Below are positions 10,883 through 62,391 of a DNA stretch of 64,000 bases, piece by piece (positions within the stretch are counted from its first letter, which is position 1; each line of letters starts with the position of its first letter). The notes under the pieces are model-generated. The model saw only the letters and a program-made list of their open reading frames with translations, was not told where the DNA came from and did not search any database. This DNA is from Polyangia bacterium. GTDB taxonomy: Bacteria > Myxococcota_A > Polyangia > Palsa-1104 > JAEUJZ01. The DNA lies in the NCBI GenBank assembly GCA_046351595.1, contig JAXLYE010000002.1, positions 1,432,022-1,496,021 of the forward strand, read 5' to 3'. A program made the translations under genes and the position numbers.

Positions 10883-11512
10883 TTACGGCGCCTCTTTCTC
10901 GCCCTCGGCCTTGGCGTCCGCCTTGGTCGACTTGGGCGCGGTCTTGGGCGCGTGCTCGTAGGTCGACACCGTCATGTCCACCTCGAACTCCTCGTGCTTG
11001 TCGTCGCGCGCGCGGATCGACAGCTGCGTCACCAGCACCAGGTTGCTCGGGTAGGTCTCGAGCCGGTGCATGAACTTGAGCAGCGGCTCGAGCTTGACGC
11101 GGCCGAGCCGCAGGTCCACCGACTGCTGGATGTACTTCTTGCCGATGGGCTCGGGCGTGCGCGGGTTGGTCTCGCGGATCTCGATGGTCGCCTCTTTCGC
11201 CATCTGCTCGAGGAAGCCCGAGAGCGACAGCGGGCTCGAGCCGATGCGCGCGTCGAGCTGCGACTGCCGCGCCCGCGCCGAAAGGTACGGCCCGCGCTTC
11301 TTGGCGATGTCCGACAGCGCCTTCTCCATCGCCAGGTTCTTCTCCTCCAGCGTGTCGATGCGGTCGTACAGCGAATAGGCGCCGAACAGGAACAGCAGCA
11401 GCACCACCACCGCGCCGAGCAGCGCGAGCAGCGACCGCTCGCGCGCCGACAGCCCCTCGAAGGCGTCGCGCAGCCGGGCGAGCGGCGGGAACTTGGTGAG
11501 GATCTCGCTCAT
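10883..11512 (-). CDS. gspM: Type II secretion system protein M
   Basis: 209 aa with one N-terminal transmembrane helix (LLALLGAVVVLLLFLFGAY). It sits between gspL and gspN in the canonical order. Confidence 0.65.
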   Translation of the reverse strand: MSEILTKFPPLARLRDAFEGLSARERSLLALLGAVVVLLLFLFGAYSLYDRIDTLEEKNLAMEKALSDIAKKRGPYLSARARQSQLDARIGSSPLSLSGFLEQMAKEATIEIRETNPRTPEPIGKKYIQQSVDLRLGRVKLEPLLKFMHRLETYPSNLVLVTQLSIRARDDKHEEFEVDMTVSTYEHAPKTAPKSTKADAKAEGEKEAP

Positions 11513-11528
11513 GGTCGCTGGTTCCTTC

Positions 11529-13307
11529 CTACAGGCACGTATTCTCGATCTCGAGCGAGAACTGCTTGACCTCGACCGGCTTGCCGTCGGGCCCGTTGTT
11601 GCGCACGGTCAGCACCTTGCCCTTCTGCACGCTCTTGATGCAGGGCAGCTTCTTCAGCATCTCGGCGAAGTCGTCGACGTACTGCGCCGAGCCGCACGTC
11701 GCCTTGAGGTCGATCTTCTTCGGCCGGATCGACAGGTCGACGACGTCCAGGCGCGCCGGCCCGGCCGCGTTCTTCTCGGGCGCGTTCTTGGAGATATCTT
11801 CCAACAAGTCCAGCGCCGAGAAGCGCGGCACGCTCTTGTCGCCCTTGTCGGCGCTGATCGCGGCGTTGAGCTCGGAGGACACCTGGTGCCCGTCCTGGAT
11901 CTCCTTGCCGAACAGCGTCATCGACTCGCTGGCGAGCTGCTGGCGCAGGCGCTCGTGCTCGCGGTCCAGCACCTTGAGCGTCGCCCACGCCCAGCCGGCC
12001 ACGCACAGAAGGATCGCCGCGGCAAAGCCCGCGAACAGCGGCGCCTTCTCGCGCAACAGCGCCAGGTCCGAGCGGTACGCGAACTCGCCCTTCCTGAAGT
12101 TCAGCTGCGGACCGTCGCCGGCCATCGCCAGCGCCAGGCCCACCGCGGCGCAGCCGGTCGGCCACAGCCGCACCAGCTGCGCGTGGCTGACGTGCGTGCG
12201 CGTCGCCTCATCGATCATGCCGACGCCGCTCATCGAGATCGCGGCGAGCTCCTTGGCGCCCTGCCGGAGCCACGGCGCGCCCGGCGGCGGCAGCAGCGAC
12301 TGCGTCGTGATCCCGAGCTCGCCCTGCAGGAACTCCTCGATGCCGTGCAGGTGGCTGGTGCCGCCGCACAAGAGCAGCAGCTGCGGCGGCCCGCCGTAGC
12401 GCGCGCTGTAGGCGGCCAGCGTCTGCCGCAGGTCGCGCAAGAGCGGCTTCATCGCCTCGCGCAGCGTGTTCTTCACCCGCGCATCGCCGGAGCCGACCAG
12501 GCCGATCTGGTGTTTCAGCTCGGTCGCGCGATCGAGGTCGACGTCGAGCGCGCGCGCCACCGAGAGCGTCAGCTGCTCGCCGCCGCGCGCGATGGTGCGC
12601 GCGAACTGCGTCAGCACGTGCCCCGGTCGCCCCGGCTGCGGCGTCACCGCGACGACGTGGGTGTTGCGGTGGCCGAGATCCAGGACCCACACCGGCCACT
12701 CCGCCAGCGACAGGCTGTTCGGCTGCGGCAGCGTGCGCGCCGCCAGCACCGCCGCGGTCGCGATCGCCGAGACCCCGACCAGCCGCGGCTCGAGCTGCGC
12801 GCCGGCCAGCGCCTCGATGATCTCGCGCACCGCGCTCTTGTCGGCGCTCGCCGCCAGCCACAGCGACGAGGCGTCGCCGCCCGCACGGATCTGCGCCGGC
12901 TGCGCGACCGTCTGATCGACGATCTGGTCGTCCAGGTCCGACATGAGCTGGCCCGCCAGCTCGAACGGCAGCGCCGCCTGCACCTTCTTCGGATCCGACA
13001 GCGGCATGTCGACCAGCCGCAGCGTCACGCCGTCCGAGAGGCCGACCGCGGTGGACTCGCTGCGCAGCCGCTGCGCGGACAGGAGCGTCTGCAGCGCGCG
13101 CAGCTGGCGCTGGCGCAGCGGCTCGGGCTCCGAGGCCGCGCCGGCACCGCCTTCGCCACCGGCCTCCTCGTCGGACTCCGGCAGGGTCGGCGGCGGCACC
13201 AGGGCCTCGTCGATGTGCACCAGGCTCACCGTGCGGAAGCCCTGATCGAGCCGCGCCACCTTCACCGCGTAGCTCCCGAGATCGATGCCGAGAATCGTCG
13301 TCGCCAT
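11529..13307 (-). CDS. gspL: Type II secretion system protein L (actin-like cytoplasmic domain plus transmembrane segment plus periplasmic domain)
   Basis: 592 aa. The N-terminus ILGIDLGSYAVKVARL is PilM/GspL-like, and an internal transmembrane segment is present (LFAGFAAAILLCVAGWAWA). Position matches the operon order. Confidence 0.7.
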   Translation of the reverse strand: MATTILGIDLGSYAVKVARLDQGFRTVSLVHIDEALVPPPTLPESDEEAGGEGGAGAASEPEPLRQRQLRALQTLLSAQRLRSESTAVGLSDGVTLRLVDMPLSDPKKVQAALPFELAGQLMSDLDDQIVDQTVAQPAQIRAGGDASSLWLAASADKSAVREIIEALAGAQLEPRLVGVSAIATAAVLAARTLPQPNSLSLAEWPVWVLDLGHRNTHVVAVTPQPGRPGHVLTQFARTIARGGEQLTLSVARALDVDLDRATELKHQIGLVGSGDARVKNTLREAMKPLLRDLRQTLAAYSARYGGPPQLLLLCGGTSHLHGIEEFLQGELGITTQSLLPPPGAPWLRQGAKELAAISMSGVGMIDEATRTHVSHAQLVRLWPTGCAAVGLALAMAGDGPQLNFRKGEFAYRSDLALLREKAPLFAGFAAAILLCVAGWAWATLKVLDREHERLRQQLASESMTLFGKEIQDGHQVSSELNAAISADKGDKSVPRFSALDLLEDISKNAPEKNAAGPARLDVVDLSIRPKKIDLKATCGSAQYVDDFAEMLKKLPCIKSVQKGKVLTVRNNGPDGKPVEVKQFSLEIENTCL

Positions 13308-13370
13308 GTTTGTTCTGGACCTTGAGCCGGGCGCGCTGCCAAATCGCGCGCTCTCTTTTTTCGATCGACC

Positions 13371-14993
13371 TCAGTCGATGCGGAAGTATTTCCAGGTGCC
13401 GCGGTTGCAGCTCGGGTGGTTGAAGCACACCGGCGTGCTGTTGAAGCTGCGCGCGTCCCACACGCCGCGCACGTGGACCTCGGTGGCCTTGTTGCTGCCG
13501 CGCGCGACGATGCCGGTGGCGTCGATGCGGAAGAAGCGCCGCGTCACCGACTTGCCGCTCGTCGGGGTGCCGCCCGGCGGCGCGCCCGGTGGCAGCGGCG
13601 GCGGCGCGTTCTTGTCGCGCAGGTAGTTGGCGAGCATTCCCGGGCACAAGGGGATCGGCCGCAGCCCGACCGAGGGCCTGGGCGCCGTGCTCATCCCGGT
13701 CATCATCGCCAGCGACTCCGAGAGCTGCGGCAGCTGCCCGATCATCGGGCTGCAGATCAGATCCGACAGCATCTGGATCGAGTCGCTCGCGGTCGTCGTC
13801 TTTGTGGTCGTCGTCTTTGTGGTCGTCGTCTTTGTGGTCGTGCTGCCGGTCACGTTCGGGCACTGCCGCACGTCGACGTTGCACGAGGGGATCGGCATCT
13901 TGCCGCCCATCTGCCGCAGCATCGGCAGCCCGCCCTTCAGCATGCCCGCCACCTGCTGCGCCACCATCATCGTGTTCGGATCGAACACCGCGCTCTTGTC
14001 CGCCGCCGAGGCCGCGATCATCGCCGCCACCAGCGGCCACGAGTCCGGCGAGATCGCCGAGGCCAGCACCTTGCACTCGCTGCCGCCGTAGACCGTGAAC
14101 ATCTCGCCGAAGTTCAGGTAGAAGTCGTCCGAGATGCCGCGCACCAGCAGCATCTCGTCGATGGTGTCGAGGTAGTGGTTGTGCGCCTCGTAGCGGTCGC
14201 GCCCCTTGTCGTAGCGGTCCTCGCTGGCCGAGCCCGAGCCGGTGACGCTCAGCGGATCGAAGCGCATCGGGTCGATGTCCGTCCAGTCGATGACGCCGAG
14301 CGGCAGCTCCTCGCGCTTGATCACCACGCCGTCGCGATCCGGGACCTCGAACATGCGGTCGTAGCGCGTCGGCCGCACCAGGTTGTACATGAGCAGGTAC
14401 AGGTTGCGCTGCAGCTCGCGGTTGGGCGTCACGCCGCCGCCGCAGTTGATCAGGTACTTGCCCTCCTCGGACGCGATCTTGACGTCGAACGAGGTGCCGT
14501 TTGGCGTGCCCATGCCCTCGGCGTTGCCGAGGTCGATGCCGACGAGCGAGCCCAGGCCGTCGCGCGCCTCTTTGTCGCCGCCGAAGGCCTTGGCCAAGAA
14601 GCCTGCGTAGTCCGTGATGACGATGGCGTCCGCCAGGTCCGGCATCACCTGCGCCAGCATGCCCGAGACGCTGCCCTGCACCGCGGTCAGCAGCTGCCCG
14701 AGCTGCAGCCCGGCGCGCGCCAGGTACTCGGCGCGCAGCCTGTCACGGCTGTTCGCCGCGGCCTCGATCTCGACCTGCGTGCTGTACGCGAAGTCGCTCG
14801 CCGTCGCCGCGATCACCGACGTCGTCACCAGCACGATCAGGATGGCGATGCCGCGCTCGCGCCGCGTCGGCTCGCGCTTCGTCAGCCGCTTGAGCAGGAT
14901 CCGCCGCAGCCGCGCAAAGAACCCGGGGCGCGCCGCGGCGGTCGCCGCGAGGTCCGCAGGGTTCGGTCGATCTGCTCTTTGTGCCGTGTCCAT
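13371..14993 (-). CDS. gspK: Type II secretion pseudopilin K
   Basis: The start is taken at the ATG (cat 14991-14993) 8 nt after the gspJ stop. RRERGIAILIVLVTTSVIAATASDFAYST resembles the GspK N-terminus. It contains a TTTKT 15-bp x3 repeat at about 13800-13860. The longer ORF reaching 15302 is read-through. Confidence 0.7.
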   Translation of the reverse strand: MDTAQRADRPNPADLAATAAARPGFFARLRRILLKRLTKREPTRRERGIAILIVLVTTSVIAATASDFAYSTQVEIEAAANSRDRLRAEYLARAGLQLGQLLTAVQGSVSGMLAQVMPDLADAIVITDYAGFLAKAFGGDKEARDGLGSLVGIDLGNAEGMGTPNGTSFDVKIASEEGKYLINCGGGVTPNRELQRNLYLLMYNLVRPTRYDRMFEVPDRDGVVIKREELPLGVIDWTDIDPMRFDPLSVTGSGSASEDRYDKGRDRYEAHNHYLDTIDEMLLVRGISDDFYLNFGEMFTVYGGSECKVLASAISPDSWPLVAAMIAASAADKSAVFDPNTMMVAQQVAGMLKGGLPMLRQMGGKMPIPSCNVDVRQCPNVTGSTTTKTTTTKTTTTKTTTASDSIQMLSDLICSPMIGQLPQLSESLAMMTGMSTAPRPSVGLRPIPLCPGMLANYLRDKNAPPPLPPGAPPGGTPTSGKSVTRRFFRIDATGIVARGSNKATEVHVRGVWDARSFNSTPVCFNHPSCNRGTWKYFRID

Positions 14994-15001
14994 GCCGCGC
15001 C

Positions 15002-15692
15002 TCACATCAGGCCCGAAGACGGCGAGGTGTCCAGGAGCTGCGACATCGCCACCCGCGTCTCGGACAGGAGCCACAGCTCCTCGCCCAGCTCGTCGCGGAT
15101 GCCGAGCTTGACCCGCACCCGCGTCGGCAGCCGGTTCGGGAACCCGTCCGCCTGCGCCGTGCGCCAGGTCTCCAGCCACTCCTTGCGATCCGGGTGGTAG
15201 TACGAGATCTCCAGCCGCACCACGTCGTCGGCCAAGAGCTCCGCCTCGCCCGGGATGTTCTCGAAGCGCTCGGCCTGTAGCCGCCGCGTCTCGCGCCGCC
15301 ACAGGTTCAGCTTGCGCGAGTCCTCCGGATCACGAAGCCCGTAGTAGCCGACCAGCGCGGTGTCCGCCTCCTTGGCGTCCGCGTACAGGCGCTGGTGACC
15401 GAAGTACGAGAAGCGCAGCTCGTCGATGTCCGGCCGGCGCACGCCGTCGAAGAACGTGCGCGGCGTCTGCTCGGTGCCGAGCACGTTGTTGTTCGACAGG
15501 TACGCCATCTGCACGTCGTGCAGGATGCGGTCCATCGCCAGCCGCGCGACGCGGTAGCGCGCCATCTTCGCCTCGACCGCGCGCTTGGACAGAAACGTCT
15601 GCCGGAACGAGGTCCACAACAGCACGGTGATCGAAGACAGGATCCCCACCGCCACCATGATCTCAAGCAGCGTAAACCCCGCCTGCCGCACC
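15002..15692 (-). CDS. gspJ: Type II secretion pseudopilin J
   Basis: Prepilin motif (M)RQAG|FTLLEIMVAVGIL with Glu at +5. GTG start (cac 15690-15692). The 456-aa ORF reaching 16372 is a frame artefact that overlaps gspI. Confidence 0.7.
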
Positions 15693-15762
15693 CGCGACCG
15701 CGCAGCCCGCCGACGAGGAACTGAACGCTCCGCGCAGCGCTCCGTATTCAGCCGCTCCCCGC

Positions 15763-16365
15763 TCACGGCGCCACCGGGATCCGACGCATGTCGGTGTAAA
15801 ACGTCACCACCTCGACCTTCTGATCGGGCAGCGCCGGCTCGTCCCACCACACCCGCACCGTCACGCGCCGGATGCCCTGCTCGAGCATCTCCTTGACCGG
15901 GCCGAGCAGCCCGCCCATGCCGCTCGTCAGGTTCCCGCCCTGGCTCGAGCTGCTCGAGCCGCTCGAGCTCGTGCCCTTGCCCGCCTCGCTCTGCTTGTCC
16001 TGCAACAGCTTGGTCGCCGCGGCCTGGATCTGATCCGCGCTCGGCAGCCGGATCTTCTCGGTGGTGCGCGTCCAGCGGAAGCGCTGAAACGCCTTGTCCT
16101 CGAACTCGCCCTTCTCTTCCTTGACCGCGACGTCGTCCTTGAAGCCCTCGGTGATAAAGTCGTTCTCCTGCTCGATCAGGAGCTTGCGCGCCAGGAACGT
16201 CGCCTGCGTCATGAAGCGCGCGTGCTGGCTGGCCCGCACCGAGCGCGCCAGCGCCAGCGTCAGCCCCGTCAGCGCCACCGACAGGATCGCCATCGCGATC
16301 ATCACCTCGAGCAGCGTGAAGCCCGCGGCCCCCCGTGCCCGTGCCCGTGCTCGCCGCACCGTCAT
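15763..16365 (-). CDS. gspI: Type II secretion pseudopilin I
   Basis: GAAG|FTLLEVMIAMAIL prepilin leader and helix. The size and position are right; the stop TGA at 15763-15765 gives ...MRRIPVAP*. Confidence 0.7.
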   Translation of the reverse strand: MTVRRARARARGAAGFTLLEVMIAMAILSVALTGLTLALARSVRASQHARFMTQATFLARKLLIEQENDFITEGFKDDVAVKEEKGEFEDKAFQRFRWTRTTEKIRLPSADQIQAAATKLLQDKQSEAGKGTSSSGSSSSSQGGNLTSGMGGLLGPVKEMLEQGIRRVTVRVWWDEPALPDQKVEVVTFYTDMRRIPVAP

Positions 16366-17093
16366 GAGCCACCCCGCGTCGGCGTGTCGCGCCCGTCGAA
16401 GTCCTGCGGCGGCGGCAGCCGACCGCTCTTCACCTCGACCCGCCCGGTCAGCCCGTGCACGAACAGCGTGTACTGATCGTCGTCGCTCGGGTCGGTGCCC
16501 AGGTGGATCACCGCGCGCTCGGTGTGCCCGTCGGGGAAGAAGTGCAGGTACGCGTGGCCCGCCTTATACGGCTCGCTCTGGCGCGGCGTCAGGATGTCCA
16601 GCACGTGCACCCGCGACATGCGCACGCTCGGCAGCGTCGTGTCTTTATATTCCGAGAACTTCGGCCGGCGCGGCGACGGCGGCGGCAAGAGCTCCGGCGG
16701 CAGGCCGGTGTCGCGCTTCTCGCTGTCCTCGGCCTGCTTGTCTTCCTTGTCCTTGTCGCGGCCGCGGCCGTTGCGCCCCGACTCCTCGCGCTGCTCGAGC
16801 AGCACCCGCGCCTCCGAGCGCTCCAGCCGGTACGTCTGCTGATCCAGATCGAAGTGCAGCCGGAAGTACGAGCCCGTCGAGATCGCGCGGTCGTAGCTGT
16901 AGCGGATGGCCGCCGCCAGCTTGCCCGACTGCGCCCGCAGCTCGCTCTTTACCAGGCTGCGCACGCCCAGCACCACGCCGCCGGTCAAGAGCGAGATCAC
17001 GGCCAGCACCACCAGCGTCTCGATCAGCGAGAAGCCGGCCTCGGTGCCCGCGCGCGGACCGCTCGTCCGCGGGTATGCCACAGGGCGCGCCAT
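16362..17093 (-). CDS. gspH: Type II secretion pseudopilin H
   Basis: TEAG|FSLIETLVVLAVISLL prepilin motif. It overlaps the gspI start by 4 bp. Confidence 0.7.
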   Translation of the reverse strand: MARPVAYPRTSGPRAGTEAGFSLIETLVVLAVISLLTGGVVLGVRSLVKSELRAQSGKLAAAIRYSYDRAISTGSYFRLHFDLDQQTYRLERSEARVLLEQREESGRNGRGRDKDKEDKQAEDSEKRDTGLPPELLPPPSPRRPKFSEYKDTTLPSVRMSRVHVLDILTPRQSEPYKAGHAYLHFFPDGHTERAVIHLGTDPSDDDQYTLFVHGLTGRVEVKSGRLPPPQDFDGRDTPTRGGS

Positions 17094-17103
17094 GCGGATC
17101 GTC

Positions 17104-17577
17104 CTACTTGTCCTCTTCCCACGACTTGATGTCGTCGGCCGTGCCTTCCTTGCCGTCCTTGCCGAGGCTGACCAGGTCGATCTCCGAGCCGTGCTCGCCC
17201 GGGCACTTGAAGACCAGCGGCCGGCCCCAGCCGTCCTTGGGCTCCTTGTTCAGGATCTTTCGCGTCGCCAGCTCCTGCAGGTTCGGCGGGCACGGCTCCG
17301 ACGACTCGGTCTGCCACTGCACGACCGCGTTCTCGATCGTCTTCATGACGTTGCGCGTCTCCTTCTTGCGCGCGCGCTCGAGGAACGCGAAGGCGCCGAA
17401 GCCGACCGCGCCCATCAGCATGCTGATGATCGTCAAGACGACCATGATCTCGATCAGGTTGTAGCCGCCCTGGCGGCGCGCCTGAAGGCGGCGGGCGTGA
17501 CGGGCGCGCAGGACGGAGAGGACGCGCGCGATCGAGCGGCGCACGGCGCGGGGAAGGGACTGGTTCATCGGGTTCAT
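17104..17577 (-). CDS. gspG: Type II secretion major pseudopilin G
   Basis: GG|YNLIEIMVVLTIISML together with the conserved DGWGRPLVF and SLGKDGKEGTADDIKSW motifs of GspG. The true start is probably internal, since the leader is too long from 17577. Confidence 0.8.
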   Translation of the reverse strand: MNPMNQSLPRAVRRSIARVLSVLRARHARRLQARRQGGYNLIEIMVVLTIISMLMGAVGFGAFAFLERARKKETRNVMKTIENAVVQWQTESSEPCPPNLQELATRKILNKEPKDGWGRPLVFKCPGEHGSEIDLVSLGKDGKEGTADDIKSWEEDK

Positions 17578-17640
17578 GTGCGGATCGCTCCTTGTCGCAA
17601 GGCTGGTCTGGGAAAGCTCACGTGCGGACGCGTCGGGCCG

Positions 17641-18939
17641 TCACTGCACGAACTGGTTCATCTCCATGATCGGCATCAGGATCGAGAAGACCACGAAGCC
17701 GACCGCGCCGCCCATCGCCAGGATCATCAGCGGCTCGAGCAGCGTCGTCAGGCGCCCGACCGCGATGTCGACCTCGAGGTCGTAGGTGTTGGCGACGTTC
17801 TCGAGCATCTGCTCGAGCTGGCCCGAGCGCTCGCCGACCGCGATCATGTGGCAGACGATGGCCGGGAACTGGTTCGAGCGGCGCAGCGGCTGCGCGATCG
17901 ACTCGCCCTCGCGGATCGACTCGCGCGCCTCCTCGACGACCTTGGTCAGCACCGAGTTGCCGAGCACGTTCTTGACGATCTCCATCGCCCGCAAGAGCTG
18001 CACGCCCGAGGCCAGCATCGTCGACAGCGTCTTGGCGAAGCGGCTGACCGCGACCTTGCGCGCCAGGCCCCCGAACACCGGCAGCTTCAGCACGAACTGG
18101 TCCCACTTGTAGCGGCCGCGCGGGCTCTGCTGCCAGCGGCGGAAGAAGTAGAACGCGACGAGCAGGCTCGGGACGAGCAGCCACAGGTAGTCGCTGAGCA
18201 CGGTGCTAAAGAAGATCAGGATCTGCGTATTGAGCGGCAGCGCCCGGCCGGTGTCGGCGAAGATCGCGGTCACCTTGGGCACCACCGTCGTCATCAGCAT
18301 CGACAGGATGAGCACGCCGATGACGGTCATCACCGCCGGGTAGAACAGCGCCGACACGATCTTGGCGCGCAGCTTGTTCTGCGCCTCGAGGAAGTCGGCC
18401 AGGCGCAGCAGCACCGCCTCGAGGTTGCCGGCGGCCTCGCCCGCGGTCACCAGGTTCACGTACAGCTCGTTGAACGCGCCGGGGTGGCGGTTGAGCGCCT
18501 GCGAAAGCGGCAGGCCCTCGTTGACCTGCACCTTGATGTCCGAGAGCACGCGCTTGAGGACCGGATCCTCGCTCTGCTCGATCAGCGCCTGCAGCGACTC
18601 CGAGAGCTGGACGCCGGCGCGCAGCAGCGTGCCGAGCTGGCGCGTCAGCACCGCCACCTCGGCCGGCTTGGCCCGGCTCTGCCGCGCCTCCCACCACTCG
18701 AGCAGGCCGTTGAGGTGCAGCGACTGCAGGAGCTCGGCCACGCCGCCCTGCGCCGCTACCGCCGCCGCGCCGCCGTCACCGGCCTTGCGCGCGCTGGCCG
18801 AGCCCGACTCGCGCACCTCGCTGAGCAGGATGCCGTCGCGGCGCAGCGCCTGGCGCAGGGCGCGCGGGCTGTCGGCGTCCTTGATGCCGCTCGTCGGCTT
18901 GCCCTTTGCGTCAAAGCCTCGGTACTGGTAGACGGGCAT
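17641..18939 (-). CDS. gspF: Type II secretion inner-membrane platform protein F
   Basis: 432 aa with the GspF-type start MPVYQYRGFDAKGK, two T2SSF repeats and three transmembrane regions. Confidence 0.85.
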   Translation of the reverse strand: MPVYQYRGFDAKGKPTSGIKDADSPRALRQALRRDGILLSEVRESGSASARKAGDGGAAAVAAQGGVAELLQSLHLNGLLEWWEARQSRAKPAEVAVLTRQLGTLLRAGVQLSESLQALIEQSEDPVLKRVLSDIKVQVNEGLPLSQALNRHPGAFNELYVNLVTAGEAAGNLEAVLLRLADFLEAQNKLRAKIVSALFYPAVMTVIGVLILSMLMTTVVPKVTAIFADTGRALPLNTQILIFFSTVLSDYLWLLVPSLLVAFYFFRRWQQSPRGRYKWDQFVLKLPVFGGLARKVAVSRFAKTLSTMLASGVQLLRAMEIVKNVLGNSVLTKVVEEARESIREGESIAQPLRRSNQFPAIVCHMIAVGERSGQLEQMLENVANTYDLEVDIAVGRLTTLLEPLMILAMGGAVGFVVFSILMPIMEMNQFVQ

Positions 18940-19043
18940 CGCCTCTCCCTAACACATCGGTCCCGGGCCGTCAGCTGACGGGGCAGCCGTCGGCGCTGGG
19001 TTCGGCCGGTTTGGGCCGTTTTGGCCGCTTTTGGAAAGATCAG

Positions 19044-19060
19044 CAGCAAGCCAGGTGCCA
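19044..19060 (-). promoter_or_regulatory. Sigma-54 (-24/-12) promoter of the gspF-N operon
   Basis: The minus strand reads g-TGGCAC-ctggc-TTGCT, a perfect fit to TGGCAC-N5-TTGCW, about 100 nt upstream of the gspF ATG. Confidence 0.65.
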
Positions 19061-19133
19061 CCGGCCCGGCCGCGCCGATCGCCCGCCACCGACGGAGATC
19101 CGCACCGGGTCGGGCGCCGCCGTCGGCGTCGGT

Positions 19134-19146
19134 CTGCCAATTTGGC
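19134..19146. promoter_or_regulatory. 13-bp perfect palindrome TGCCAATTTGGCA; candidate enhancer (UAS) for the sigma-54 activator, about 75 bp upstream of the gspF -24 element
   Basis: Seen in the sequence. Related copies lie at 23807-23819 and 23848-23860, upstream of the divergent gspC sigma-54 promoter. Confidence 0.5.
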
Positions 19147-19255
19147 ACACGAGGGTGACGGGCCCGCCCCCGCGCCTGCCAAAACGACAGAGCGCAAGCG
19201 ACAGGAGCGAGCCGTTAGCAGCCGTACCGATGGCGCGGCGGCGGCCGCGATCCGC

Positions 19256-19954
19256 TCAGGGCTTGGACTCGCCGCCCTCGCCCTCGCCGCTGTTCTTGAC
19301 GTCGATGGCGCTGGGGACGATGCGCTGCAGCGGCTCCTCCTGCGCGGTGGCGGTCGGGATCTCGCCGCGGATGTACGGGTCGACGAGCGCGCGGTCGGCC
19401 GGCTCCACGGTCGGGTGCTTCTCGCCGTAGACCATGAGGCCGCCGCCGACGACCAGGTGCAGGCCGCCGAGGATCATCGCGACCAGCGCGCCGGTGCCGT
19501 CGCTGTAGGCGCGCTGCGAGGTCGGCTGGTCCACGGCCGCACCGACGCCGAGGCCGATGTGGGCGACGCCCATGCCGAGGATCACGCCGCCGACCATGAG
19601 GAACGGGCTGGCCTTGGTGGCGCGCACCCGCAGAAATGCCGGCTCGTCCGCGCGCCCGAGCCCCTTCTTGAGCGCCGGATCGTCGAGGTACAGGTGCCGG
19701 TAGCGCAGCGTCACCGGCTCGCGGTCCTTCTCGCGCAGCGCCGGCAGGAGCGCGCCCTTTCGCGCGTTGTCCGGGACCTCGGTCATGAGCTCGGCCGCCT
19801 TGCGCGGCACCAGGAACGGCTCGGACAGGCTGCACCCCGACGCGACCAGGACGCCGAGCCCGCCGAGCCCGAGCGCCGCCAGCCCCGGGGCGCAGCTCGC
19901 CCGACGCCGCCGACTCCGGCCCCGGTCCCCTCGGGCTCGCTCGCTCGCCGTCAC
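19256..19954 (-). CDS. Hypothetical membrane lipoprotein
   Basis: Lipobox LVASGC, then hydrophobic segments (ASPFLMVGGVILGMGVAHIGLGVG, ALVAMILGGLHLVVGGGLMV). No recognisable catalytic motif. The start is uncertain. Confidence 0.5.
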   Translation of the reverse strand: MTASERARGDRGRSRRRRASCAPGLAALGLGGLGVLVASGCSLSEPFLVPRKAAELMTEVPDNARKGALLPALREKDREPVTLRYRHLYLDDPALKKGLGRADEPAFLRVRATKASPFLMVGGVILGMGVAHIGLGVGAAVDQPTSQRAYSDGTGALVAMILGGLHLVVGGGLMVYGEKHPTVEPADRALVDPYIRGEIPTATAQEEPLQRIVPSAIDVKNSGEGEGGESKP

Positions 19955-19961
19955 CGCCGCC

Positions 19962-22073
<2,112 letters not shown>

Positions 22074-22137
22074 TGGCTCCTCGGGCGCGTGGCAACGAGC
22101 CGGCCTTCTGTGCGGCGAAGGCCGGGCCGGGCGGTGG

Positions 22138-22797
22138 TCAATAAAGGGCCCATGTCAGGTCGGTTTGCCCCAGCGGGCCCGTGACCCGCAAGATGATCTT
22201 GCGCGCCGTCGGACGCGGTACCGGCTGGTCGCCGAGCATCGCCGGGAAGCGCACCAGCCACAGCTTGCCGTAGGGGTCGCGCGACTCGTCCAAAAGCTCG
22301 AGCTGGCGCGGCTGCTCGGCGGTCGAAACCAGCTCGACCTTCTCGGCCACCACCTCGTGCCCCTCGTCGTCGAGCAGCGCCAGGCGCCACTTGCCGACCT
22401 CGGGGCGCAGATCGTTCCAGCGCGGCGAATAGGTCGCCGAGCGCAACCAGAAGGTCACGCTGCTGGCGTCGGCGAGCGCCGCGCCCTCGATGCGGGCGCG
22501 CTCGGCCGGGTCGCTGATGCGGTAGAGCTTCGTGTAGCGGTCGCTGTAGGCGTGCTGGTACGCGCGTGAGCGCAGCGTCGCCGACACCAGCAGCGACGTC
22601 TCCATGTCGCGCGTCGAGATGATGCGGCCCGAGCGGCTCCAGCGGTCGCGCGTCCTTGCGAACGAGGTGCCGGGCGGCTCGGCGTCGGCGCTCAGGCTGA
22701 CCGCCGCGGGCGCGCAGCCGGTCGCGCCCATCCCGATGACGGTGAGGGCAGCCAGCACGACGGCAGAGGTGAGCCGGGCAGCACAAGCGACGAGCAT
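22138..22797 (-). CDS. Hypothetical lipoprotein
   Basis: Signal peptide with lipobox (GMGATGC). 219 aa with no recognisable family. Confidence 0.5.
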   Translation of the reverse strand: MLVACAARLTSAVVLAALTVIGMGATGCAPAAVSLSADAEPPGTSFARTRDRWSRSGRIISTRDMETSLLVSATLRSRAYQHAYSDRYTKLYRISDPAERARIEGAALADASSVTFWLRSATYSPRWNDLRPEVGKWRLALLDDEGHEVVAEKVELVSTAEQPRQLELLDESRDPYGKLWLVRFPAMLGDQPVPRPTARKIILRVTGPLGQTDLTWALY

Positions 22798-22947
22798 GGG
22801 GTGAGTATATCTTTTCCCGACAGCAGCGGGCCGCGGCGAAAGCGGGCCGCGGCGGTTGTCCGGTTCGGGCGATTTGGGCGGTTCGTCCAGGTTTCCGGGC
22901 GGGTCGCCCGGACCCCGCGAGCTCGACCCGAGATCGTGGGTCGAGGG

Positions 22948-23565
22948 CTAGTCCCGCCGCTGCATCGCGCGCTGGCCGAGGCTGGGCAGCGCCGGGATGG
23001 TGCGCTCGGCCGGGGCCGCGGCGGGGCCCGGCGGCGCCGGCGGCGGCTCGGCGTGCGGCATGGCCAGCGCGCCCGGCGGCGACGCCACCGCGGGCACGCT
23101 CACCGGCTGCGTGGTCAGCACGCTCGGCGGCGGCGCGACGGGAGCCGGCGCGGCCGGGGCCTGCTGGACCGGGGCCGGGGCCGGGGCCGGGGCCTGCTGG
23201 ACCGGGGCCGGAGCCGGGGCCGGCGCCGTCGGGCGGGTCACGGCGCCCCCCTCGAGCAGGCTGGCGAGCTGCTGGTCCGAGACAAACGAGACGCGCGTCG
23301 CCATGATCTCTCCGAGCACCCTGCCGCCGACGTGCACGCGCACCGCGTCGCGCGCCTTCAGCGTCCCCTGGAACACACCCGCGACCAGCGCGTCGCCGAC
23401 CTCGGTGTCCTCGCAGCTCACGCTGCCGGTCTTGTTAACGAACAGCCGCCCGCGCACCCGCAGCGGCCCTCCCTCGATCTGGCCCTCAACCGTCAGGTCC
23501 TCCTCGGAGGCGACCTGGCCGATGATCTTGGTGCCAGAACCAATCGTAGTCTTCGTGCTTGCCAT
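22948..23565 (-). CDS. Bactofilin-family cytoskeletal protein with a Pro/Ala/Gln-rich C-terminal tail
   Basis: The N-terminal ~110 aa match the bactofilin (DUF583) fold pattern TKIIGQVASEEDLTVEGQIEGG...RVRGRLFVNKTG...VGD. An APAPAPAPVQQ repeat is encoded at about 23150-23230. Confidence 0.7.
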   Translation of the reverse strand: MASTKTTIGSGTKIIGQVASEEDLTVEGQIEGGPLRVRGRLFVNKTGSVSCEDTEVGDALVAGVFQGTLKARDAVRVHVGGRVLGEIMATRVSFVSDQQLASLLEGGAVTRPTAPAPAPAPVQQAPAPAPAPVQQAPAAPAPVAPPPSVLTTQPVSVPAVASPPGALAMPHAEPPPAPPGPAAAPAERTIPALPSLGQRAMQRRD

Positions 23566-23806
23566 TGTGCGTGCAGGGTATCACCCGAAAAAGCGCGGGG
23601 TCAAACAGCGCTCCGTCGGAGCGGGTCCGGACCGCCGCGGACCCGCGCGCGGTGCGAGGTGGCGGAAACCAGCCGGAGGCGGAAGGGGGATCCGGTGCGC
23701 GGTGTGCGGACCCGGCCGCGGCGCGCCTGCGCGGATCGCTCCTTAAGATCCGAAAGCGGGAGCCCGGGCCGGCCGCGGGGCCTGCTGGGGGGCCGGGCGG
23801 CGCGGC

Positions 23807-23860
23807 TGTCATTTTGGCAAGGGCGCTCCGGCCCGGTCCCGGGGCGCTGTCAATTTGGCA
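23807..23860. promoter_or_regulatory. Two direct copies of the half-palindromic motif TGTCA(T/A)TTTGGCA (23807-23819 and 23848-23860); candidate enhancer sites upstream of the gspC sigma-54 promoter
   Basis: Both copies share the extended context gcGctgtcaWtttggca and lie 87 and 128 bp upstream of the -24 element. Confidence 0.45.
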
Positions 23861-23945
23861 GCCAGGCCGCGGCGCGGCGGCCCGGGCGGGCGCGGGTCCC
23901 CGTCGCTGAGCGGGCCCGGCGCGGCCGGCGGGCGTGGGCCGCTCG

Positions 23946-23961
23946 TGGCATTGACCTTGCA
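23946..23961 (+). promoter_or_regulatory. Sigma-54 (-24/-12) promoter of the gspCDE operon
   Basis: TGGCAT-tgacc-TTGCA matches TGGCAY-N5-TTGCW. The -12 GC is 41 nt before the gspC GTG. Confidence 0.65.
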
Positions 23962-24000
23962 CTGAACCTTTGTGGTAGGACGCGACAGGGAGCCATTGCT

Positions 24001-24933
24001 GTGCTGCTCAAGAAGTACTTCTGGGTGCTGAACCTCGTGGTGATCGCGGTCTGCGCCTCGTTCCTCGGTCGGGCGACCGCCAGCTCGGTGGTCGGGCTGA
24101 TCCTGCGCGGCGACGGGCCGGCGCTGCCTCGGCGCGAGGGCGCGGCGGCGACGAGCAGCGAGCCGGTGCGCAGCAAGGACATCCAGTCCATCCTCGGGCG
24201 CAACATCTTCTGCTCGCAGTGCGCGCCGGTCTCGCTGACGCCCGACAAGCCCGTCGAGGACGGGCCGGTGGACACGACGCCGCAGCGCACGGCGCTGAAC
24301 CTGCAGCTATTGGCGACGATGGTCTCGCCCGGCGACTGGGAGTGGTCGATGGCCGTCATCCGCAACAACGACGACGAGAAGAAGTCCGTTGGCATCTACA
24401 AGCGCGGCGACAGCCTGCCGCTCGGCGGCGCGGTGCTGGCGCAGGTGGTCGAGGGCCGCGCCTACATGGTCGTCGGCAAGCGCGTCGAGTACCTGGACAG
24501 CAACAAGGAGGCGCCGCCGCCTCCGCCGCCGACCTCGGTGGCCAGCGTCGAGCCGATGCCCGGCGACGCGACCGGGCTGGAGAAGGACATCGACAAGGGC
24601 GTACGCTGCTCGGGCGCAAACTGCGAGGTCGACCGGAGCCTCATCGACAAGGTCCTGGCCAACACCACGGCGCTTGCCACGAGCGCGCGCTTCGTGCCCT
24701 CGATCAAGGACGGCAAGCCCAACGGCTTCAAGCTCTACGCCATCCGCCCCGGCTCGATGTTCGCGAAGATCGGGCTGCAGAACGCGGATCTGATCAAGGC
24801 CATCAACGGACTCGACATGGCGACCCCGGACAAGGCGCTTGAGGCGTACACCAAGCTCAAGAGCGCCTCGCACCTGACGGTCATGGTCGAGCGCCACGGC
24901 CAGAACATCACCCTCGATTACCAGATTCGGTGA
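24001..24933 (+). CDS. gspC: Type II secretion system protein C (N-terminal transmembrane helix plus C-terminal PDZ domain)
   Basis: GTG start giving LLKKYFWVLNLVVIAVCASFLG, which is GspC-like. The C-terminal PDZ-like region includes GFKLYAIRPGSMFAKIGLQNADLIKAINGLDMATPDKALEAY. It lies directly upstream of gspD. The longer ORF from 22801 is read-through. Confidence 0.75.
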   Translation: MLLKKYFWVLNLVVIAVCASFLGRATASSVVGLILRGDGPALPRREGAAATSSEPVRSKDIQSILGRNIFCSQCAPVSLTPDKPVEDGPVDTTPQRTALNLQLLATMVSPGDWEWSMAVIRNNDDEKKSVGIYKRGDSLPLGGAVLAQVVEGRAYMVVGKRVEYLDSNKEAPPPPPPTSVASVEPMPGDATGLEKDIDKGVRCSGANCEVDRSLIDKVLANTTALATSARFVPSIKDGKPNGFKLYAIRPGSMFAKIGLQNADLIKAINGLDMATPDKALEAYTKLKSASHLTVMVERHGQNITLDYQIR

Positions 24934-27578
24934 GCGTGAACATGACGACGCGGTTCAGACGGCTGCTTCCCAATTTTTTATACGGGCCCGTGCTCGGGGC
25001 CGTGCTCGGGGCGGTGCTCGCGCCCGGCGCGGCCTTGGCGCAGAAGACCCCGGCCACGGACCCGACGCGCATGATCCGCGTCGCCAACCCGGCCACCGCG
25101 GCGCCGCTGAACGTGCAGCCGGGTCCGACGTCGCCGCCGCCGCCGGCCGCCAGCCCCGGGTCGGTGGTGTCCCCGGGCGCCGCGGGCCAGGCCGCCGGCG
25201 CCGGCCAGAAGGCCGCCGACGACCTGCCGCTGCCCGGCGAGAAGGAGTTCAACGAGTGCCGGACCTTCCCGGGCAACAAGAAGGTCAGCATCAACCTCAA
25301 GCCCGAGACCGAGCTGCTCGAGCTGATCGGCTGGATCAAGGCGATCTCGTGCCGGCCGTTCATCCTGCCGGCCAACATCCGCCAGTCCAAGGTGACGATC
25401 ATCGCGCCGCAGCTGGTCACCGCGAACGAGGCCTACCGCATCTTCCTCTCGGCGCTCGAGTCGATGGGCCTGACCGTGCAGCCCGACGGCAAGGTCCTCA
25501 AGATCATCGAGAGCAGCCGCGCCCGCGAGTCGTCGATCCCGGTGGTCGCGCCGGGTGAGGTGGTGCCGCGCGCCGAGCAGTTCGTGACGCGCCTTTTGCG
25601 CCTGAAGAACATCACGCCCGACGAGGTCGTGCAGGTGCTGAACCGCCTCAAGGGCCGCGACGGCGACATCATGCCGTACGCCACGACGAACACCCTGGTC
25701 ATCACCGACCTGGCGTCGAACATCCGCCGCATGGAGGACGTGGTGCGGGCGCTCGACGTGCCGATGAGCGGCGAGAAGATCTGGGTGATTCGCCTGCGCA
25801 ACATCGTCGCCACCGAGGTGACGCAGATGCTGCAGCAGGTCTTCGGCGTCGGCAAGCAGGCGGGCAGCGGCCAGGCGCGGCGGCCGCCGATCAGCGTCAG
25901 CAGCGCCGGCAGCGACAACGGCCAGCCCGGCCCGAGCAACGAGGGCGGCGACTCGATCAGCCAGATCTACGCCGACGACCGCACCAACTCGATCATCCTG
26001 GTCGCGGCCGAGCGTACGTACCAGCGCGTCTTCGCGCTGATCAAGCGCCTGGAGGTCCAGAGCAGCACCGGTCCCACCGGCCGCATCCACGTCTACGCGC
26101 TGGAGAACGCGCTGGCCGAGGACATGTCGCAGGTGCTCGGCGGCCTCGGCATCTCGGTGAGCAGCAGCGGCGCCCGCCCCGGCCAGCGGCCCGGCGCCCG
26201 CCCGACGCCGCAGAGCAGCGGCGGCTCGGGCCAGGGCAACACCGGCATCTTCCAGGACGAGGTCAAGGTCACCCCGGACAAGGCGACGAACTCGCTGGTC
26301 ATCGTCGCCACCAACAAGGACTTTTTGACGCTGCGCGACGTCATCCGCCGCCTCGATCTGCCGCGCCGGCAGGTCTTCATCGAGGCGACGGTGATGGAGG
26401 TGACCATCGCCAAGCAGCGCAACCTCGGCCTCGCGTATCACGGCGGCTACCCGATCGACATCGCCGGTCAGCAGACCACGGTCATCGGCGGCCTGGAGAG
26501 CGGCAAGCTCAACTCGCTGTCGCCGCTGTCGGCGCTCGCGCTGACCGGCCTGGTCGGCGGCGCCATCGGCCCGCAGTTCTCGGCCAACAGCATCTTCGGC
26601 CAGGGCGCGACCGGGACCGGCAGCTCGGTGCTGCCGCCGATGTTCGGTGTGCTCATCCAGGCGCTGCAGACCAACAGCGAGAGCAACGTCCTGCAGGTGC
26701 CCAACATCCTCACCACTGACAACGAGAAGGCGACGATCACCGTCGGCCAGAACCTGCCGTTCCCGAGCGCCCTGACCTCGAGCCTGCCGCTCGGAGCCGG
26801 CAGCGCCGCCGCGTCGCTGACGCCGTTCCAGTCGGTGCAGCGCCAGGACGTGCAGCTCAAGCTCGAGATCACGCCGCACATCAGCGCCGGCGAGCAGGTC
26901 CGCCTCGAGATCGACCACGAGGTCAGCGACGTCTTCGACAAGAACTACAACAACCTCGGCCCGGCGACGACCAAGCGCACGCTCAAGACCGTCGCCGTGG
27001 TGCGCGACCAGCAGCCGGTGGTGCTCGGCGGCATCATGAAGGACCGGGTCAACGAGTCGGTGACCAAGATCCCAGTGCTCGGCGACATCCCGATCCTCGG
27101 CTACCTGTTCAAGAACAAGGAGCGCTCGATCGACAAGCAGATGCTGCTGATCGTGCTGACGCCCTACATCATCAACGACCCGTCCGAGCTGTCGCGCATC
27201 TTCGAGCGCAAGACGCGCGAGCGCCGCGAGTTCATCGAGAGCTACACCGCCTTCGCCGACGACCGCGACGTCGCCACCGCGATCGACTACACCCGCAAGC
27301 GCGGCGCGCTCGAGGAGATCAACCGCACCGCGGTCGAGGCCGAGCGCGAGATGGTCGAGCTGCGCGCCGCCGAGCAGTCGCTCAACCGCGACTTCATCGA
27401 CGCCGGGCCGGTCGAGCTGCCGCCGATGCCGCGCGGACCGGCCCCCGGGGGCGCGGGCGCCGCGCCGGTGTCGCCGGGCCTGGCGCCGAAGCTGCCGCCG
27501 CCGCCGACCTCGGGCACGCCGGCCGCACCGAGCCCGCCGGTCGCGCCGCAGCCGGGACCGGGCCAGGCCCCGGGCTAG
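24930..27578 (+). CDS. gspD: Type II secretion system secretin
   Basis: 882 aa with a signal peptide, N0-N3 domain repeats and a conserved secretin C-domain (VLGGIMKDRVNESVTKIPVLGDIPILGYLFKNKER...LLIVLTPYII). The start is GTG 24930 or ATG 24942. Confidence 0.9.
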   Translation: MSVNMTTRFRRLLPNFLYGPVLGAVLGAVLAPGAALAQKTPATDPTRMIRVANPATAAPLNVQPGPTSPPPPAASPGSVVSPGAAGQAAGAGQKAADDLPLPGEKEFNECRTFPGNKKVSINLKPETELLELIGWIKAISCRPFILPANIRQSKVTIIAPQLVTANEAYRIFLSALESMGLTVQPDGKVLKIIESSRARESSIPVVAPGEVVPRAEQFVTRLLRLKNITPDEVVQVLNRLKGRDGDIMPYATTNTLVITDLASNIRRMEDVVRALDVPMSGEKIWVIRLRNIVATEVTQMLQQVFGVGKQAGSGQARRPPISVSSAGSDNGQPGPSNEGGDSISQIYADDRTNSIILVAAERTYQRVFALIKRLEVQSSTGPTGRIHVYALENALAEDMSQVLGGLGISVSSSGARPGQRPGARPTPQSSGGSGQGNTGIFQDEVKVTPDKATNSLVIVATNKDFLTLRDVIRRLDLPRRQVFIEATVMEVTIAKQRNLGLAYHGGYPIDIAGQQTTVIGGLESGKLNSLSPLSALALTGLVGGAIGPQFSANSIFGQGATGTGSSVLPPMFGVLIQALQTNSESNVLQVPNILTTDNEKATITVGQNLPFPSALTSSLPLGAGSAAASLTPFQSVQRQDVQLKLEITPHISAGEQVRLEIDHEVSDVFDKNYNNLGPATTKRTLKTVAVVRDQQPVVLGGIMKDRVNESVTKIPVLGDIPILGYLFKNKERSIDKQMLLIVLTPYIINDPSELSRIFERKTRERREFIESYTAFADDRDVATAIDYTRKRGALEEINRTAVEAEREMVELRAAEQSLNRDFIDAGPVELPPMPRGPAPGGAGAAPVSPGLAPKLPPPPTSGTPAAPSPPVAPQPGPGQAPG

Positions 27579-27627: not shown

Positions 27628-29580
<1,953 letters not shown>

Positions 29581-31288: not shown

Positions 31289-31915
31289 ATGAGCTACCGG
31301 CTGTACTACTTCCCGCTGCGCGGACGCGGCGAGCAGATCCGCCTGATGCTGCACGCGCTGATGCAGCCGTTCGAGGACGTCGCGGTGAAGCGCGATCAGT
31401 TCGTGGAGATGAAGAAGGAAGGGCCGCGCCAGCTGGCCTTCGGCTCGCTGCCGATGCTGGAGGACGGTGAGCTGCGCCTGGTGCAGGGGCCGGTGATCCT
31501 CGGCTACCTGGCGCGCAAGCACGGCGCGGCGCCGACGGATCTGAAGCAGGCGGCGCGGGCCGACGCGATCGCGCTCGGCGCCGAGGACCTGCGCACCAAG
31601 TACTTCGGCACCCTGAGCGGCGACAACGCCGACGAGAAGAAGGCGGCCTTCCGCGACGGCGACTGGCGGACCCGCTGGCTGCCGTCGCTGGAGGGCCTGC
31701 TCGAGCTCAATGCGGGTACCGGTGGCACCGGCGACACCGGCTTCTTCGTCGGCGACAGCCTGACCCACGCGGACATCGCGGTGTGGGACGCGCTCGACGG
31801 CGTGCTGACCAACATCGCCGGCGCGACGCTCGACGGCTTCCCGCGCCTGGTGCGCTTCCGCGAGTCAATCGCCAAGCGCCCGGCCATCGCCGAGTACCTG
31901 CTGCAGCGCAAGTGA
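31289..31915 (+). CDS. Glutathione S-transferase
   Basis: A strong RBS (aggaggaggagga) precedes the ATG. It has the GST N-terminal thioredoxin-like pattern (YYFPLRGRGEQIRLML) and a C-terminal helical domain. Confidence 0.75.
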   Translation: MSYRLYYFPLRGRGEQIRLMLHALMQPFEDVAVKRDQFVEMKKEGPRQLAFGSLPMLEDGELRLVQGPVILGYLARKHGAAPTDLKQAARADAIALGAEDLRTKYFGTLSGDNADEKKAAFRDGDWRTRWLPSLEGLLELNAGTGGTGDTGFFVGDSLTHADIAVWDALDGVLTNIAGATLDGFPRLVRFRESIAKRPAIAEYLLQRK

Positions 31916-31995
31916 CCGGCGCGGGGGACACAAGAAGGTTTCCCGCTTCAATAATAGCCCTTGCTCGCGCGGCGCGCGGTGTTTACCGATGCTGC

Positions 31996-34026
<2,031 letters not shown>

Positions 34027-40402: not shown

Positions 40403-40623
40403 CTGGCGCGCCTGGCCGGCTCTACCGACGGTTTCTGTTCTTTGACTGCTCGCTTTCCGCGGGCGGTTTCACCGGACAAATACTGCCGGACAGATCCTGA
40501 TAAATACCGGCCCCGCGTATCAGGGCGCCTCCCCGCTGCGGCGGACCGCGCCCGCCGCGGAACGGAAGCGGCGCAGACCCGCGCATTGAACCGACGGTGA
40601 CGCAGGTTTATCATGGGTCGGAA

Positions 40624-42324
<1,701 letters not shown>

Positions 42325-53212: not shown

Positions 53213-53700
53213 GTGTGCTTGAGCGGTGAGATGAACGGACTGAGAGCCGGGACGAAATGCCTGAGCGCCAGCTCAAAGTGCCTGAGAGCCGGGAGCGAGT
53301 GCCTGAGCGCCAGCCAGAAGTGCCTGCGCGCTGGCTCAAAGTGCCTGAGAGCCCGGAACAAGTGCCTGAGAGCCAGCTCCAAGTGCCTGAGAGCCCGGAA
53401 CAAGTGCCTGAGAGCCGGGAGCGAGTGCCTGAGAGCCCGGAACAAGTGCCTGAGCGCCGGGATCAAGTGCCTGAGAGCCCGGACGAAGTGCCTGAGAGCC
53501 CGGAACAAGTGCCTGAGAGCCGGGATCAAGTGCCTGAGAGCCGGCTCAAAGTGCCTGAGAGCCGGGACGAAGTGCCTAAGAGCCGGCTCGAAGGGCCTGA
53601 GCGCCGGGCCAAAGTGCCTGAGAGCCGGCTCGAAGGGCCTGAGCGGCTGGAGCGAGTGTCTGAGCGGCTGGAGCGAGTGCCTGAGCGCCGGGGCCTAGGG
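53213..53700. repeat. Array of about 23 tandem 21-bp repeats (consensus gtgcctgagagccSggaMcaa) at the island boundary; open in several frames as heptad repeats
   Basis: Seen directly. There are no unique spacers, so it is not CRISPR. Frame +1 (53213..53698) gives KCLRAGS heptads and ends exactly at the patatin gene stop. Frame +2 gives VPESPEQ. The minus frame gives LRHLFRA. Confidence 0.85.
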
Positions 53701-62121: not shown

Positions 62122-62391
62122 GCCGAGCGGGTCCGCGCCGGGCTGCGCGCGCGCCCCGCGCGGGTCCGCAACAGGCCCTTCACCCGCGCCTGCCGGTTGC
62201 GTGCTCTCCGTCGCTGACGACGCGTCTTGCGCGGTGCCGGTCGCGGTATCTACCGGGATCTGCAGCGAATTTGCGACGGCGCGCGCGCCCTGCGCGTTGG
62301 CCGCATCAGCGACGGAAGAATCAATCACCGGCAGTCTACGGAGCGCCATTTGACAGGGCACCTTTTGTCGGAATATCGTCGAGAATACTGG

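Follow-up and report, generated by a model that had tools for sequence, protein, structure and literature searches.

How a bacterium switches on its type II secretion system (T2SS), and how both parts of the system are kept under common control once the genes lie in two separate arms, is the question raised by this locus of a Polyangia bacterium. To our knowledge, T2SS gene regulation is poorly known outside a few pathogens. We analyzed a window of 64 kb (the term denotes the whole stretch of DNA studied here, 64,000 nucleotides, with a G+C content of 70%), in which a T2SS is encoded: GspC, GspD, GspE, GspF, the pseudopilins G-K, and GspL/M/N.

[quoted passage not shown]

24001-24933 (+), gspC, 310 aa, GTG start (NCBIfam NF041515, GspC_delta, 306 bits against a cut-off of 150)
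24930-27578 (+), gspD, secretin (Pfam Secretin, Secretin_N and GspD N0 domains)
27628-29580 (+), gspE, ATPase, the last gsp gene of this arm (Pfam T2SSE, 2e-137; MshEN N-terminal domain)
9365-18939 (-), gspF-G-H-I-J-K-L-M-N arm (Pfam/NCBIfam: T2SSF, T2SSG, GspH, N_methyl, T2SSJ, GspK, PilM-like GspL, T2SSM, GspN)
19256-19954 (-), lipoprotein-like ORF
19962-22073 (-), sigma-54 activator (EBP) with FHA-GAF-AAA+-HTH architecture (Pfam), the sole EBP gene in the window
22138-22797 (-), lipoprotein-like ORF
22948-23565 (-), bactofilin

A total of 1335 GspC homologues were found, and most of those among the matches listed are 303-323 aa long with 100% coverage. The aligned N-terminus reads M(D)xLLKKYFWV, and the GTG start of gspC is supported by an ATG at the equivalent aligned position in the 87-89% relatives.

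Several other features of the window were recorded on the way. GspE (650 aa) has an MshEN-type N-terminal domain (E = 4.7e-15), and domains of this type are reported to bind c-di-GMP in some T2SS/MSHA ATPases (PMC4624772). At 23575-23604 (-), the bactofilin gene is preceded by a sigma-70-like promoter composed of TTGACC (23604-23599), N15 and TGATACCCT (23583-23575); only 9 nt separate it from the ATG (23565), implying a nearly leaderless mRNA, and the arrangement is conserved in L040, L044, L048 and L050. Genes for two Ser/Thr protein kinases (one has a PEGA domain) and for a PP2C phosphatase lie at 3169-4938 (+), 40597-42324 (+) and 62227-63132 (+). A 1400-aa protein (48305-52507, +) contains AAA_21/AAA_15/SMC_N-type ATPase domains in its C-terminal third, and a patatin-like phospholipase is encoded nearby at 53695-54969 (-).

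A probable, conserved sigma-54 promoter ahead of gspC

The candidate promoter elements and the ribosome site are listed below.

23946-23961 (+), predicted sigma-54 (-24/-12) promoter of gspCDE, TGGCATTGACCTTGCA, an exact consensus conserved in 39/40 related loci
23988-23992 (+), Shine-Dalgarno sequence GGGAG, 8 nt ahead of the GTG (CAGGGAG or ACAGGAA in close relatives)
19045-19060 (-), predicted sister sigma-54 promoter of the gspF-to-gspN arm, TGGCACCTGGCTTGCT, identical in L052 with different flanks

An earlier note on this DNA had read TGGCAT-tgacc-TTGCA, ending 41 nt before the gspC GTG, as a consensus sigma-54 promoter. The element is real: compared with the sigma-54 consensus TGGCAY-N5-TTGCW, all core positions agree, and with GG at 23947-48 and GC at 23959-60 the spacing is exactly GG-N10-GC. 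When both strands of the 64-kb window were searched with the strict pattern TGGCAYN5TTGCW, only two matches were obtained, one ahead of each T2SS arm, against a mean of 0.07 in dinucleotide-shuffled sequences, none of which (0/100) reached two. The gspC-side match lies on the right strand, in non-coding DNA and a short distance 5' of the gene; the gap to the GTG (24001-24003) has to be corrected to 39 nt (23962-24000). Judged by the usual placement of the GC element, transcription of gspC would be expected to start at about 23972, giving a 29-nt leader, for which an Rfam scan returned no RNA family and the fold z-score was 0.47.

To examine conservation, species-representative genomes were scanned with the GspC alignment, which yielded 39 loci; the orthologous ones all come from uncultured Polyangia/Myxococcales MAGs. 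Conservation of the element was counted over 40 orthologous or near-identical loci, the window and its close metagenomic relatives included, with GspC identities from 96% down to 28%. A -24/-12 element was present within 130 nt of gspC in 39 of these 40 loci, the background for the relaxed pattern being 0.016 per 130 nt. In the 533 kb of the 39 loci from the genome scan, the pattern TGGC[AC][CT]N5TTGC[AT] had 28 matches, and all but one of them (27/28) sit 40-106 nt 5' of gspC and on its strand. When the loci were aligned on the element, TGGCAY and TTGCW showed an information content of 1-2 bits, compared with roughly 0-0.4 bits for the spacer and the flanking positions; across the orthologous loci, the 5 nt of the spacer and the sequence on either side of the element vary freely. 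Even positions left free by the search pattern agree with the consensus: motif position 12 is T in 33/39 loci, and position 16 is A/T in all 39. In relatives at the genus level (GspC 87-96%), the intergenic region (23566-24000) is hard to align and contains indels, and the invariant islands in it are the promoter, two upstream boxes, the CCGTCGCTG block, the ribosome site and the start codon.

These data bear on the possibility that TGGCATTGACCTTGCA is a chance or vestigial match and that gspC is transcribed from another promoter of the sigma-70 type. A TTGACC hexamer does occur within the spacer (23951-23956), and GC-rich genomes yield many partial TGGC..TGC matches (12 relaxed matches here). 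However, the strict pattern stands 30-fold above expectation, the element, unlike the spacer with its TTGACC, has been retained in about 40 loci whose GspC identity falls as low as 28%, and a search for sigma-70-like promoters over 18800-24300 found none. We therefore consider a chance match extremely improbable. As a -35 hexamer in its own right, the TTGACC of the spacer was rejected, as it is not conserved in close relatives.

Thus, the proposal that the element drives gspCDE is upheld as far as sequence goes, since 39/40 loci keep it and no sigma-70-like alternative was found over 18800-24300 of the window. The best explanation is that TGGCATTGACCTTGCA is very probably a working sigma-54 promoter of gspC-gspD-gspE, served by an upstream enhancer and belonging to a duplicated control cassette (see below). 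No rpoN gene was found within the 64-kb window; the presence of sigma-54 in this organism may be presumed from one source only, the EBP gene, whose sigma-54 interaction domain scores 244 bits.

Five or six further loci carry TGGCAYGRAAGSTGAT (TGGCAY-N5-STGAT) in the equivalent position, with A in place of C at -12. C at -12 is near-universal in sigma-54 promoters, and A there is unusual. The sub-clade with this variant comprises L017, L024, L026, L028, L029, L030 and L035, in which it lies about 40-60 nt 5' of gspC, and in several of these loci the EBP coding sequence contains, at its 3' end (..NDNLAME..), the enhancer palindrome described below.

Paired palindromes upstream of both promoters

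Upstream of the two promoters, the following elements were identified.

23807-23819 (+), predicted gspC distal enhancer (UAS) palindrome, TGTCATTTTGGCA, centre 134 bp 5' of the first G of GG, invariant in the 87-96% relatives
23848-23860 (+), predicted gspC proximal enhancer (UAS) palindrome, TGTCAATTTGGCA, centre 93 bp 5' of GG and 41 bp from the distal site
23900-23908 (+), conserved block CCGTCGCTG between enhancer and promoter, invariant among close relatives with diverging flanks
19135-19147 (-), predicted gspF proximal enhancer palindrome, TGCCAAATTGGCA, centre 82 bp from GG
19177-19189 (-), predicted gspF distal enhancer palindrome, TGTCGTTTTGGCA, centre 124 bp from GG and 42 bp from the proximal site

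Both promoters are thus preceded, at about 80-135 bp, by two palindromes of the form TGYCR-WWT-TGGCA that are 41-42 bp apart. With one mismatch allowed, TGYCRWWTTGGCA matches the window at four places, where 0.23 would be expected, and each of the four belongs to one of the two promoters. The distances from palindrome to promoter (93/134 for gspC vs 82/124 for gspF) differ by 10-11 bp. The palindrome is identical across all clades; its form in the gsp control regions, TGYCAANTTGGCA, is the predicted activator target. At least one palindrome was found upstream of the promoter in every locus examined (38/38), with the proximal site in distance classes of 59, 70-72, 82-83, 93 and 105 bp (steps of about 11.5 bp) and the second site 41-43 bp beyond it. 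The phasing gave a Rayleigh R of 0.82 at a period of 11.3-11.7 bp, a value that is indicative only, the sequences being related and non-independent. On this evidence the paired palindromes would be the standard enhancer anatomy for a sigma-54 activator that needs one helix face.

The CCGTCGCTG block has a counterpart on the gspF side, CCGTCGGTG at 19087-19095 (-), with which it aligns when the two control regions of the window are compared. The two regions thus have in common a block CCGTCG(C/G)TG between enhancer and promoter.

A REC-AAA+-HTH EBP gene, encoding a response regulator, lies directly 5' of gspC in L016-L036 and in at least seven GC-rich metagenome contigs. In some of these loci the palindromes overlap the -35 of sigma-70-like promoters of this EBP gene (L018:8150-8240, L020:620-690, L021:1940-2000, L026:5100-5170, L030:3740-3790). 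Those promoters have the form TTGCCA/TTGACA-N16-17-TAGGAT/TAGCCT/TACGAT, for example TTGCCA-N17-TAGGAT, and the overlap suggests negative autoregulation of the response-regulator EBP gene. The same position is typical of repression, and it could be taken to mean that the palindromes are operators of a non-EBP factor, such as a repressor or a nucleoid protein, with the promoter being activated from elsewhere or by an enhancer-independent activator. We consider this very unlikely, as tandem sites 60-140 bp 5' of a -24/-12 element and in helical register follow the standard EBP layout, and the palindrome-to-promoter distance recurs in at least 120 metagenome contigs. Moreover, a dual use of such sites is known for NtrC at glnA/glnL, where activation from a distance is combined with autorepression at a sigma-70 promoter.

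A split operon with a copied control cassette

The earlier note had also placed -24/-12 elements on both arms of the split T2SS, and the second element, 5' of gspF at 19045-19060 (-), bears this out. Its description of the two promoters as divergent holds for their orientation only: a distance of 4.9 kb, which includes a block of four minus-strand genes, separates them.

In L001-L036, gspC-D-E-F-G-H-I-J-K-L... are contiguous and on one strand in every locus, with one promoter. The gspF-to-N arm of the window is colinear with these unsplit clusters of relatives. The split layout was seen only in the close relatives L040, L048, L049 and L052, and the split is therefore derived. In L040 and L048, the EBP gene, a 217-aa ORF and the bactofilin gene are divergent from gspC; L049 has the same EBP / 217-aa ORF / bactofilin layout, and gspE is its last gsp gene, with unrelated genes next; in L052, the EBP gene and a 229-aa ORF are followed by the palindromes, the promoter and gspFGHIJK.

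Aligned with each other, the gspC and gspF control regions match along some 190 nt, interrupted by a single 12-nt indel. For the inter-motif stretch alone, the local alignment score was 27, a value reached by none of 1000 shuffles (15.4 +/- 2.3) and not by other segments of the window (maximum 19). This significant similarity between the motifs indicates that the promoter regions of gspF and gspC are paralogous, the former having arisen when the operon broke. In this scenario, an ancestral single gspC-to-gspN operon would have been broken after gspE in this lineage, with inversion of the gspF-to-N half, and an enhancer-plus-promoter cassette of about 190 bp would have been duplicated in the same event, so that both halves of the T2SS would remain under one activator. 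The idea of a single sigma-54 regulon for the two arms is likewise favored, judged from sequence, by the common paired palindromes, their similar spacing and the homologous inter-motif DNA.

Which activator binds the palindromes

In the proposed mechanism, RNA polymerase carrying sigma-54 would form a closed complex on TGGCAT-N5-TTGCA and would start near 23972 only after an ATP-driven activator had opened the complex. The activator would assemble on the two TGTCA(T/A)TTTGGCA palindromes, whose centres lie 93 and 134 bp upstream, and would reach the polymerase via DNA looping. Most likely, this T2SS export machine needs both sigma-54 and an activator protein for switching on.

We regard it as fairly likely that the activator is an NtrC-type response regulator (receiver-AAA+-HTH, recognition helix ..ATRTIYRKL) of the kind encoded beside gspC in relatives, and that in this genome its gene lies outside the window. 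A response-regulator EBP was sought in the 64-kb window and was absent, the FHA-GAF EBP being the only EBP match. The HTH of the response-regulator EBP, GDKRLAAQLLGIATRTIYRKL, is near-invariant, and orthologues unlinked to gsp exist in other genomes, for which no lineage assignment to the organism of the window was reached. The only recorded match for the window's own GspC is a Logan contig of 4.4 kb. NCBIfam models gave only generic below-cut-off matches to NifA, NorR, AtoC and NtrC for both types of EBP.

The other candidate is the FHA-GAF-AAA+-HTH EBP at 19962-22073, between the arms. Were it the activator, the promoter would be just as real, and T2SS expression would answer to Ser/Thr-kinase signalling through the FHA domain and to a ligand sensed by the GAF domain. 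It is the sole EBP gene in 64 kb and is flanked by both enhancer-promoter cassettes, an in-between position so exact that it is unlikely by chance and speaks for a local activator; the layout is kept in the close relatives L049 and L052, and the window has genes for two Ser/Thr kinases and a PP2C phosphatase, which might, speculatively, be partners of its FHA domain. Its HTH (GGNKT[KR]...) is also near-invariant among orthologues. However, its recognition helix is a different one (TREGLHKKL, vs ATRTIYRKL in the gspC-adjacent EBPs), yet the palindrome is the same in all clades. Furthermore, in the L001 genome its orthologue (75% identical) lies beside a bactofilin gene about 100 kb from the gsp cluster, and neither a palindrome nor a -24/-12 element was found near it, whereas the L001 gsp cluster keeps both. 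It follows that the adjacency of this EBP to gsp is recent and the enhancer ancestral. Because of the differing helix and the evidence from L001, an unlinked response regulator is favored over the local EBP, which we consider a rather unlikely activator, kept alive by the coincidence of its location.

The FHA-GAF EBP, a small lipoprotein-like ORF and bactofilin adjoin each other both in the window (19962-23565, -) and at L050:9181-12923, about 100 kb from gsp, which points to a conserved module of its own. Beside the bactofilin gene in the L001 genome, imperfect CTGGTT(C/T)TGGTT repeats were also seen 5' of an MFS transporter gene (L050:13030-13130).

The same layout upstream of chaperone genes

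Metagenome contigs were scanned for TGCCAAWTTGGCA-N60-90-TGGCAYN5TTGCW, and the combination was found in at least 120 contigs, with 73 usable loci among the matches listed. Within these 73 loci, the first downstream ORF encodes HSP20 in 20, DnaK in 15, GroEL in 12, GspC in seven, GroES in four, ClpB in three and GspF in one, the rest being singletons or spurious. All contigs with a G+C content of at least 0.70 among the matches listed belong to gsp (8/8). The chaperone layout extends across L056-L135 (for example, L084:10036-10128, L111:126-218 and L134:8917-9022), on contigs of 39-67% G+C. The chaperone contigs have their named relatives in Kiritimatiellia, Planctomycetes and Marinimicrobia, and in L062 the palindrome-promoter site adjoins an EBP with the recognition helix LRTFYRKL.

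The candidate chaperone promoters of these phyla resemble the gsp promoters in having the identical palindrome, again 60-90 bp from a consensus -24/-12 element. They differ in the genes served (hsp20, dnaK, groES/EL and clpB) and in belonging to other phyla; the comparison point in M. xanthus is HsfA/HsfB-lonD. It appears that the gsp enhancer is that of a widespread sigma-54 chaperone regulon of Planctomycetes, Kiritimatiellia and Marinimicrobia. The window contains a single chaperone gene, htpG (31783-34026), and this gene lacks a palindrome site. Our literature search found no bacterial match to the palindrome and no description of a chaperone sigma-54 regulon; sigma-32 and CIRCE are the only systems covered by Rodionov 2004. 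In those phyla, the common enhancer suggests a sigma-54 chaperone regulon that has apparently gone undescribed.

Comparison with known sigma-54 systems

A close likeness is to the classical NtrC promoters of enteric bacteria, such as glnAp2. Like gspC, these have a -24/-12 element with exact GG-N10-GC and, at about 100-140 bp upstream, a tandem pair of palindromic activator sites; like the loci of the relatives, they have a response-regulator EBP gene beside the target operon and reuse the sites over the regulator's own sigma-70-type promoter. In contrast to NtrC and glnAp2, the target here is a type II secretion operon rather than nitrogen metabolism, the palindrome is TGCCAA-N-TTGGCA rather than TGCACC-N5-GGTGCA, and the cassette is duplicated for a split operon. 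The predicted mechanism is best described as conventional, the new parts being its target, the duplicated cassette and the relatives of the enhancer.

Sigma-54 and a dedicated EBP switch on the T6SS (VasH; Bernard et al. 2011), the T3SS (HrpR/S) and type IV pilin (PilR), as cited in PMC3162934, and the gsp promoter fits the theme developed there that sigma-54 controls the cell exterior, as with T3SS, T6SS and pili. For the T2SS itself, a search of the literature on sigma-54 control returned only data on an rpoN mutant of Plesiomonas shigelloides, in which gsp transcripts are lowered (PMC9743648), and no mapped promoter or enhancer.

A possible link to nla4 in Myxococcus xanthus

In M. xanthus, gspD (MXAN_2514) is essential (PMC12475490), and nla4 (MXAN_2516) encodes an NtrC-like activator whose loss slows growth (PMC2875238, PMC11980068, PMC7910581). 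By locus tags, nla4 lies beside the gsp cluster, a position resembling the EBP-gspC-gspD order in L016-L036. Published work on Nla4 concerns the stringent response and development, not the T2SS, and in the searchable literature no paper was found that links Nla4 or sigma-54 with gsp. The rpoN gene of M. xanthus was reportedly found to be essential by Keseler & Kaiser in 1997. We put forward, as a tentative possibility, that the T2SS operon of Myxococcota depends obligatorily on sigma-54 and on a response regulator of the Nla4 type, which, gspD being essential in M. xanthus, could partly explain the essentiality of rpoN and the poor growth of nla4 mutants, and that the enhancer is ancient and common with chaperone genes of other phyla. 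This link predicts TGGCAY-N5-TTGCW and TGNCAANTTGNCA upstream of M. xanthus MXAN_2515, and if it holds in that organism, the question of why sigma-54 is essential would become directly testable.

Implications for secretion in myxobacteria

The duplicated cassette would provide an example of operon splitting without loss of co-regulation. If the reading that joins Nla4 with the chaperone enhancer is true, expression of the secretion machine would be tied to a proteostasis or envelope-stress signal. The conserved sigma-54 promoter, together with a defined enhancer, would offer a concrete, mutable switch for the myxobacterial T2SS.
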